DNA of 9,320 nt. Origin: a virus (Duplodnaviria > Heunggongvirae > Uroviricota > Caudoviricetes). Of this stretch, positions 3,005-3,250 are shown piece after piece (the first letter of the stretch is position 1; every line of letters starts with the position of its first letter). Below the pieces are notes generated by a model. The model searched no databases. It worked only from the letters and a program-made list of their open reading frames with translations, and was not told where the DNA came from. A program made the position numbers and the translations under genes. The stretch lies in IMG/VR virus record IMGVR_UViG_2534681941_000022; one strand, 5' to 3'.

Positions 3005-3048
3005 TCTGTCCCCCTCTCCTGTCTGATGTCTGAATCTGTTTATGCCCC

Positions 3049-3079
3049 AAAAACGACAGGCACCCCGGAGGGTGCCTGT
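3049..3079 (-). terminator. Intrinsic-terminator-like hairpin on the minus strand, 45 nt upstream of the J start
   Basis: Perfect 10-bp GC-rich stem (3056-3065 pairs with 3070-3079, 4-nt loop), followed on the minus strand by CG then TTTTT (3053-3049). Checked base by base. Confidence 0.4.
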
Positions 3080-3212
3080 GTCATGACGGAATAAAATTTC
3101 TGAATTTCTTCACATTTTCTGTACGCCCCCGTGGCAGATATCATTCCCGGGCGTTACAGTTTTTTCGGGCCAATAAAAACAAAACTCCCTGTGGTTAATC
3201 TTCATTTTCTGT

Positions 3213-3245
3213 TCCCGCAGCCTCCATACACTGCGGGATTTTTTT
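3213..3245 (+). terminator. Intrinsic-terminator-like hairpin on the plus strand, just 3' of the I stop codon
   Basis: 8-bp stem (3213-3220 pairs with 3231-3238, 10-nt loop) followed immediately by seven T (3239-3245) on the plus strand. On the minus strand the same hairpin is preceded by an A-run and has no U-tract, so it is oriented to stop rightward (antisense) transcription. Confidence 0.35.
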
Positions 3246-3250
3246 ATGCT

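Follow-up and report, generated by a model that had tools for sequence, protein, structure and literature searches.

The window, by which we mean the whole 9320-nt stretch of viral DNA analysed here (IMG/VR record IMGVR_UViG_2534681941_000022), carries part of a lambdoid tail operon on its minus strand. Gene J, which specifies the tail-tip, or host-specificity, protein, is represented by its 5' part (1–3004, minus strand) and runs off the start of the window; it was identified by translation and by Pfam matches of its product to FNIII-A_GpJ, Ig_J, Phage-tail_3 and Phage_Tail_Tip. Its start codon is a GTG (3004–3002, minus strand), the product begins MGKGGGK, and a ribosome-binding site, AGGAGAGGGGG, can be read from the sequence at about 3021–3011. 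The tail assembly gene I, taken from the list of open reading frames (ORFs), occupies 3251–3931 (minus strand), matches Pfam Lambda_tail_I (E = 3.8e-15) and ends in a TAA (3253–3251, minus strand). Bounded by these two codons is an I–J spacer of 246 nt (3005–3250). In phage lambda (NC_001416), I ends at 15444 and J starts at 15505, leaving a spacer of 60 nt (15445–15504), and so an earlier note on this DNA was right to put the spacer at about four times the length of lambda's. The note also described a hairpin followed by a T or U run on each strand of the spacer, and folding against shuffled sequences, together with conservation, bears out both. Each hairpin has its U run on one side only, and can therefore act in one direction only; and their conservation in many related phages shows that neither is there by chance.

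Two neighbouring tail genes merit description. The longest ORF over gene K (3829–4833, minus strand) has 334 codons from a TTG start and overlaps gene L; in a 248-codon version (3928–4671) the JAB and NlpC/P60 domains expected of K are present, and its overlap with the start of I is 4 nt (3928–3931). Gene L (4583–5282, minus strand) is split by a +1 frameshift. Its halves, the ORFs at 4884–5282 and 4583–5029, match positions 3–74 and 72–206 of the Pfam Phage_tail_L profile, and the homologous stretch is 700 nt in the window versus 699 nt in intact phages, with a G-rich run near 4975–4990. Either this is a tail-defective prophage, or the frameshift is a sequencing error.

The hairpin on the minus, or operon, strand, ACAGGCACCC-UCCG-GGGUGCCUGU, lies at 3049–3079 and resembles an intrinsic terminator by terminator scan, folding and covariation. 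Its 10-bp stem (3079–3056) contains seven G–C pairs and encloses a loop of 4 nt; a CG follows, and then U5 (3053–3049), so that a gap of 2 nt precedes a run of only five U residues, which ends 44 nt before the J start. The calculated energy is -23.1 kcal/mol (z = -5.1), and none of 200 shuffled sequences folds as well. Across 16 distinct variants of the hairpin, 98.8% of cells are paired. One pair changes from C–G to U–A in five sequences, through a U–G intermediate, and at three positions (nine cells) there are G–U or U–G wobbles, which on the opposite strand would become C.A mismatches. These compensatory and strand-specific changes indicate that selection maintains the hairpin as RNA structure in the operon-strand transcript. 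Lambda also has an operon-strand hairpin between I and J (within 15445–15504 of NC_001416), GAAACCGCC-UGCG-GGCGGUUUU with a U-rich tail, which is not annotated in the record. Like that of the window it is stable (z = -3.8) and lies a few tens of nucleotides before J; it differs in sequence, is weaker (-16.5 kcal/mol), is closer to J (22 nt versus about 51 nt) and has no small RNA gene upstream. Because lambda has this analogous structure, the minus-strand hairpin belongs to the I–J junction rather than to the ‘extra’ DNA of the longer spacer.

What such a hairpin does in the operon is a separate matter. The earlier note proposed that the minus-strand terminator separates J from the upstream tail genes unless transcription is antiterminated, and that the plus-strand one is a stand-alone insulator protecting I. 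The stability of both hairpins, their one-directional design and the structural selection on the operon-strand hairpin all agree with this proposal. Against a separator stands the presence of the same spacer in inducible, plaque-forming phages that must express J: phage ASU11, obtained by mitomycin C induction, PhiR12_4, grown on E. coli C, and BP-4795 all carry it. Lambda, as just described, has a hairpin upstream of J too, and late lambdoid transcription, which in lambda is antiterminated by Q, resists terminators. The minus-strand structure is thus real and selected, but it would not part J from the genes before it during lytic growth if the late operon of this phage is Q-antiterminated as in lambda. 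In the lysogen, it would stop unmodified RNA polymerase before J; during lytic growth, Q-modified polymerase would read through it.

The plus-strand hairpin lies at the other end of the spacer, beside gene I. It comprises a stem of 8 bp (3213–3220 paired with 3231–3238), a loop of 10 nt, and T7 (3239–3245), which stops 5 nt short of the I stop codon. The calculated energy is -13.9 kcal/mol (z = -4.2), matched by one of 200 shuffled sequences, and a loop longer than the 8-nt limit is the sole reason that a simple terminator scan did not pick it up. We assign it as the terminator of a small RNA (sRNA) gene, the window allele of the pasB family, of about 83–95 nt (3151–3245, plus strand), on the evidence of a covariance model, of alignments and of a match to a published Northern probe. 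Both the terminator and the covariance-model match fall on the plus strand, opposite the minus-strand tail genes; the window allele runs antisense to them.

PasB is one of five ‘Pas’ sRNAs of EPEC E2348/69 detected by Hfq RIL-seq and then verified on Northern blots (Pearl Mizrahi et al. 2021, PMC8550237). It is 83 nt long, is located at 1466343–1466261 (minus strand) of NC_011601, in prophage PP6, and was probed with AATCCCGCAGTGATCGCGGAGCT (Table S6, PMC8550237). In the E2348/69 genome, I ends at 1466255 and J starts at 1466496, both on the plus strand, with a spacer of 240 nt between them; these coordinates place PasB within the I–J spacer, antisense to I and J, with its last U 6 nt from the I stop codon. 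The slot is the same as that in the window: immediately after the I stop codon and against the direction of the tail operon. The two spacers align over their full length at about 80% identity, and the first 12 bases of the PasB probe match window positions 3241–3230 exactly. Both RNAs have the terminator stem CCCGCAG/CTGCGGG followed by A and U7, both contain the internal motifs AACUCC and (U/G)AUCUUCAU, and both are preceded by the same upstream block. They are 77% identical overall, 84% in the 3' half and 67% in the 5' half, and they differ in the loop of the terminator and in the promoter, which is TTCTGT/TATCAT in the window and TTCACA/TATAAT in the PasB type.

PasB is abundant in its host. 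The gene has baseMean values of 482 and 1082, compared with about 5–15 for I and J, and expression falls by log2 -6.8 and -2.4 in an hfq deletion (PMC8550237). Reads so far above those of the flanking tail genes imply that PasB has a promoter of its own, active in the lysogen. Chimeric RIL-seq reads join it to ler, perB, bfpB, bfpI, ftsZ and galE as candidate partners (PMC8550237). The plus-strand hairpin forms the 3' end of a gene homologous to that of a transcribed sRNA, which counts against its being a free-standing insulator. The suggestion that it blocks antisense transcription into I survives in part: it would stop such transcription, but as the sRNA's own terminator and Hfq-binding 3' end rather than as an insulator. 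The proposal of a separator plus an insulator has thus been largely superseded, and we regard it as distinctly unlikely.

A second set of published sRNAs appears to belong to the same family. EcOnc22, EcOnc23 and EcOnc24 were reported on the plus strand of the Sakai prophages Sp15 (Stx1), Sp14 and Sp11, respectively (Tree et al. 2014, Table S2, PMC4104026); they give a Northern band of ~85 nt that is destabilised in an hfq deletion (PMC4104026). The I–J spacers of these prophages occupy 2902691–2902930 (Sp15), 2676622–2676861 (Sp14) and 2166672–2166911 (Sp11) of NC_002695.2, with the tail genes on the minus strand. As numbered, each of the three prophages has its published peak +22 to +84 from the J start. 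The coordinates of Table S2, though, are about 128–146 nt lower than those of NC_002695.2 at 1.94 Mb and 2.92 Mb. The offset was calibrated with AgvB1, for which the Rfam match is at 1941920–1941981 and the published position 1941783–1835, and with EcOnc42, which must be moved by +119 or more to land in the intergenic region where it is known to lie. Once shifted, the peaks cover about 2902842–2902920, and the pasB-homologous RNA is at 2902836–2902926. The corrected peaks therefore fall in the pasB half of the Sp15, Sp14 and Sp11 spacers, and we infer, from this offset argument rather than from published sequences, that EcOnc22–24 are the EHEC alleles of PasB. We found no paper that states this equivalence, and the published PasB table bears no note of an EHEC homologue; the published text on EcOnc22 lists its targets as unknown. 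Mapping the EcOnc sRNAs of Table S2 onto NC_002695.2 uncorrected leads to their wrong placement.

EcOnc22–24 (PMC4104026; reviewed in PMC7873438) and the window allele share the slot, the strand relative to the tail genes, the terminator and the motifs. The window allele is 75% identical to the Sakai allele and constitutes a third. The three named alleles are 74–77% identical to one another, and the window allele resembles the other two less in the 5' half (about 67–69%) than in the 3' half (about 78–84%). When the other Sakai I–J junctions were checked for the window allele or for further Hfq peaks, only unrelated loci and Sp6 were encountered. In Sp6 (1578996–1581651), gene I is truncated to 61 codons, and the I–J junction and J have been replaced by a small ORF and a T3SS effector-like gene, espX7. 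The longest exact word shared with PasB is 17 nt for the window allele and 15 nt for the Sakai allele, so both would be missed by the word-28 blastn survey of Zhu, Shabalina and Storz (2026; bioRxiv 10.64898/2026.05.13.724894).

To characterize the family more broadly, we collected 128 loci that have the conserved upstream block, from IMG/VR and reference phages. They comprise 57 distinct spacers and 27 distinct RNA sequences, and in 127 of the 128 the block occurs together with the terminator. A covariance model (R1), built from 14 alleles with window-type sequences excluded, matches the window at 3151–3245 (plus strand) over all of its positions (1–94 of 94; 67.5 bits, E = 1.6e-12), and has no match in lambda. 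In the consensus structure of 17 alleles, a long unpaired region is followed by the terminator hairpin, the sole conserved structure. The terminator stem is invariant in all 17, and for this reason covariation gives it no support. The unpaired motifs conserved across alleles are GCGUUA, a U run, AA(C/U)UCC and U(U/C)(A/G)AUCUU; the 5' two-thirds of the window sRNA is unstructured and carries AACUCC and UUAAUCUUCAU. The first of these motifs, AACUCC, would be complementary to a Shine–Dalgarno sequence, to judge by its bases.

Comparison of the window and four related loci with Rfam 15, which includes AgvB, AsxR, STnc100, Esr41 and IsrG, gave no match in the spacer; for the window the E-value limit was 1, and for the E2348/69 and Sakai spacers it was 0.1. 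It follows from the absence of matches in the E2348/69 and Sakai spacers that PasB is not yet an Rfam family. Two further candidates were rejected on position. AgvB and AsxR both sit at the PR' site and not at the I–J junction, and HnrS (EcOnc10–12), a multicopy sRNA of the late region, maps between Rz and the terminase genes. On sequence evidence, then, the extra DNA of the spacer is an unannotated and divergent sRNA gene of the pasB/EcOnc22 type. The extra ~180 nt form a self-contained unit of promoter, sRNA and terminator, set between the I stop codon and the minus-strand hairpin.

The putative sigma-70 promoter of this unit (3117–3144, plus strand) was located by homology to the promoters of E2348/69 PP6 and PhiR5_1. 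In those two, a promoter scan found TTCACA-16-TATAAT on the sRNA strand, a match to 11 of the 12 consensus bases. At the homologous position the window has the -35 element TTCTGT (3117–3122), a 16-nt spacer and the -10 element TATCAT (3139–3144), which together match 8 of 12 and fall below the threshold of the scan. The Sakai allele, which is expressed, also fails the consensus scan and has no good -35 element, and the A, T, A and T positions of the -10 element are invariant across alleles (alignment A3). Upstream of the promoter is an A/T-rich block, GTCATGACGGAATAAAATTTCTGAA..TCTTCACATTT (3080–3116, no strand assigned), that is near-invariant in alignments A2 and A3 and in the 128 loci, and is the most conserved part of the spacer. 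It spans about -36 to -72 from the predicted pasB start, a position that suggests an UP-like or regulator-binding upstream element of the sRNA promoter.

The 5' end of the window sRNA is uncertain, and we place it between 3151 and 3163. Initiation 7 nt past the -10 element would be at 3151 and would yield an RNA of 95 nt; the same rule predicts 98 nt in EPEC, where 83 nt are reported, and 91 nt in Sakai, where the band is ~85 nt. Since the reported sizes, 83 and ~85 nt, fall short of the predicted 95 nt, there must be either processing of the 5' end or a start site at another position. Homology to the reported 83-nt PasB puts the 5' end of the window RNA at 3163. A second conserved TAnnnT element is present at 3156–3161 in the window, and the shorter 5' end could come from this element or from processing after the U run.

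The conservation of the block invites another reading, in which the terminator at 3049–3079 ends a second sRNA, transcribed from the operon strand and either derived from the 3'-UTR of gene I or initiated at a promoter divergent from pasB, the two forming a back-to-back pair. Conservation in the spacer is highest over the 70 nt upstream of that terminator, which have the look of an Hfq module, with an A/U-rich stretch, a hairpin and a U tail; the hairpin, moreover, is selected on the operon strand, and paired (‘dyad’) sRNAs are reported by the Tree laboratory from other sites in these prophages. But no operon-strand consensus promoter is present in the three alleles scanned (window, E2348/69 and PhiR5_1), Table S2 of Tree et al. 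(2014) contains no operon-strand peak at the Sp11, Sp14 or Sp15 junctions, and the part of the RIL-seq tables examined has no E2348C_1436/1437 intergenic entry. The conservation is equally well explained by an upstream element of the pasB promoter, and lambda has the hairpin without the block. A second sRNA is, in our estimation, unlikely, and we retain the interpretation of a single sRNA unit next to a separate junction hairpin.

The spacer is widespread. It is found in 786 of 5426 complete E. coli genomes, in up to 11 copies each, in 134–147 phage records, most of them Stx1- and Stx2-converting phages, and in at least 120 IMG/VR loci; none of the records examined has an RNA-gene annotation in the spacer. 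Alignment with other lambdoid junctions, which the earlier note had proposed, shows a spacer of ~240–250 nt with both hairpins in many functional phages. The spacer is therefore an ordinary variant of the lambdoid phage family. It is also mosaic: types of J leader, hairpin, promoter with 5' body, terminator loop and I 3' end occur in many combinations, and the window-type promoter is always paired with the window-type 5' body.

Several other arrangements were noted. Phage ASU11 (locus L008, 305–666) and about 80 IMG/VR loci have a 342-nt spacer, the commonest class among the matches listed. This class lacks the ACAGGCACC hairpin and has instead a bidirectional-looking one, AAACCCCGGTATC-AGCA-GATACCGGGGTTT; between pasB and J it carries an ORF of 66 codons, the product of which has no PHROG match. 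In one IMG/VR locus (L112, match at 952), the promoter block TCTTCACATTTTCACA runs into unrelated sequence of coding-like character, and neither the sRNA body nor the terminator is present; this rearranged or deleted variant is the only one among the 128 loci. A scan of genome contigs with CCCGCAG-N8-18-CTGCGGGATTTTTT returned chance terminators in unrelated phyla only.

The earlier note had left open whether the extra DNA was an insertion remnant, a small regulatory or RNA module, or a mosaic joint. Homology to pasB upholds the RNA module, and the cassette combinations lend partial support to the mosaic joint. A non-functional remnant, or a recombination scar carried along with the tail module, would accord with the strong mosaicism of the spacer and with the apparently defective state of the window prophage, the L gene of which is frameshifted. 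Two sister alleles are, on the contrary, abundantly expressed and Hfq-dependent; the -10 positions, internal motifs and terminator have been kept across alleles that differ by 25–30% elsewhere; and the co-occurrence of block and terminator is nearly universal in the loci collected. We consider a remnant or scar highly improbable.

Nor do we give much credence to a coding function. Minus-strand ORFs of 17, 14 and 34 codons lie in the spacer, ‘hypothetical proteins’ are annotated here in two phage records, and two outward-facing terminators could suggest the overlapping RNAs of a type I toxin–antitoxin pair. No Shine–Dalgarno sequence precedes any of these ORFs, however; the ATG of ATGAAGATTAA is ACG in the commonest allele, indels of 1, 2, 6 and 7 nt between alleles break the frames, and the two annotated ORFs differ in both position and length. 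No hydrophobic peptide is evident. That the spacer encodes a small protein or a toxin–antitoxin pair is scarcely credible.

The best explanation, and one that we hold with considerable confidence, is that the spacer consists of a pasB-family sRNA unit and a separate junction hairpin. The unit would be moron-like and antisense to the tail operon, and would comprise the A/T block, a sigma-70-type promoter, an RNA of ~85–95 nt and an intrinsic terminator. By homology with PasB and EcOnc22–24, the sRNA would be made from its own promoter in the lysogen, when the tail genes are silent; Hfq would bind and stabilise it through the terminator and U tail; and its single-stranded 5' and central region would pair with chromosomal and virulence mRNAs. 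Because alleles vary in their 5' half, the window allele probably has a partly different set of targets.

The orientation of the gene has a further consequence. Since it lies antisense within the late operon, Q-antiterminated late mRNA holds a perfect complement of the sRNA. Late transcription would pass head-on through the sRNA promoter and produce that complement, so that induction would both stop pasB and soak up the sRNA already made. The sRNA could also direct cleavage of the I–J junction in the late mRNA of its own prophage or of a sister prophage. One might go on to suppose that the module is a switch that couples a host regulon to prophage induction, or a means of interference between prophages, with the 5' cassettes setting its specificity. 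We offer this only tentatively, and think it rather doubtful.

Comparable elements are known. AgvB/AsxR and HnrS are, like the pasB family, short, multicopy, Hfq-binding sRNAs from repressed lambdoid prophages of EHEC, and AgvB/AsxR also combine a conserved 3' part with a 5' part that varies between alleles. They differ in location, AgvB/AsxR being at the PR' moron site and HnrS between Rz and the terminase genes rather than between I and J, and AgvB/AsxR have no sequence relationship to the window unit, to go by the absence of an Rfam match in the window. By analogy, the unit also resembles the morons of lambdoid late operons, reportedly described by Juhala and colleagues in 2000, of which bor and lom of lambda are examples: it would be an autonomous promoter–gene–terminator cassette between two late genes, expressed from the prophage. 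It departs from them in that its cargo is a non-coding RNA and its orientation is against the late operon.

The new points are few. A large group of lambdoid phages normally has this spacer, which matches a published sRNA family; to this we add the recognition of a divergent, unannotated allele, the equation of PasB with EcOnc22–24, and the distinction between an ancestral junction hairpin and the inserted unit. The broad picture of sRNAs encoded by prophages is unchanged. Within it, an unannotated regulatory RNA gene can now be placed in a spacer found in about one-seventh of complete E. coli genomes, often in several copies. The comparison suggests that PasB of EPEC and EcOnc22–24 of EHEC, though reported under separate names, are alleles within a single family that has five or more 5' variants and that long-word BLAST surveys probably undercount. 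For Stx phages, it means one more Hfq-dependent RNA, the dosage and allele set of which vary from strain to strain.
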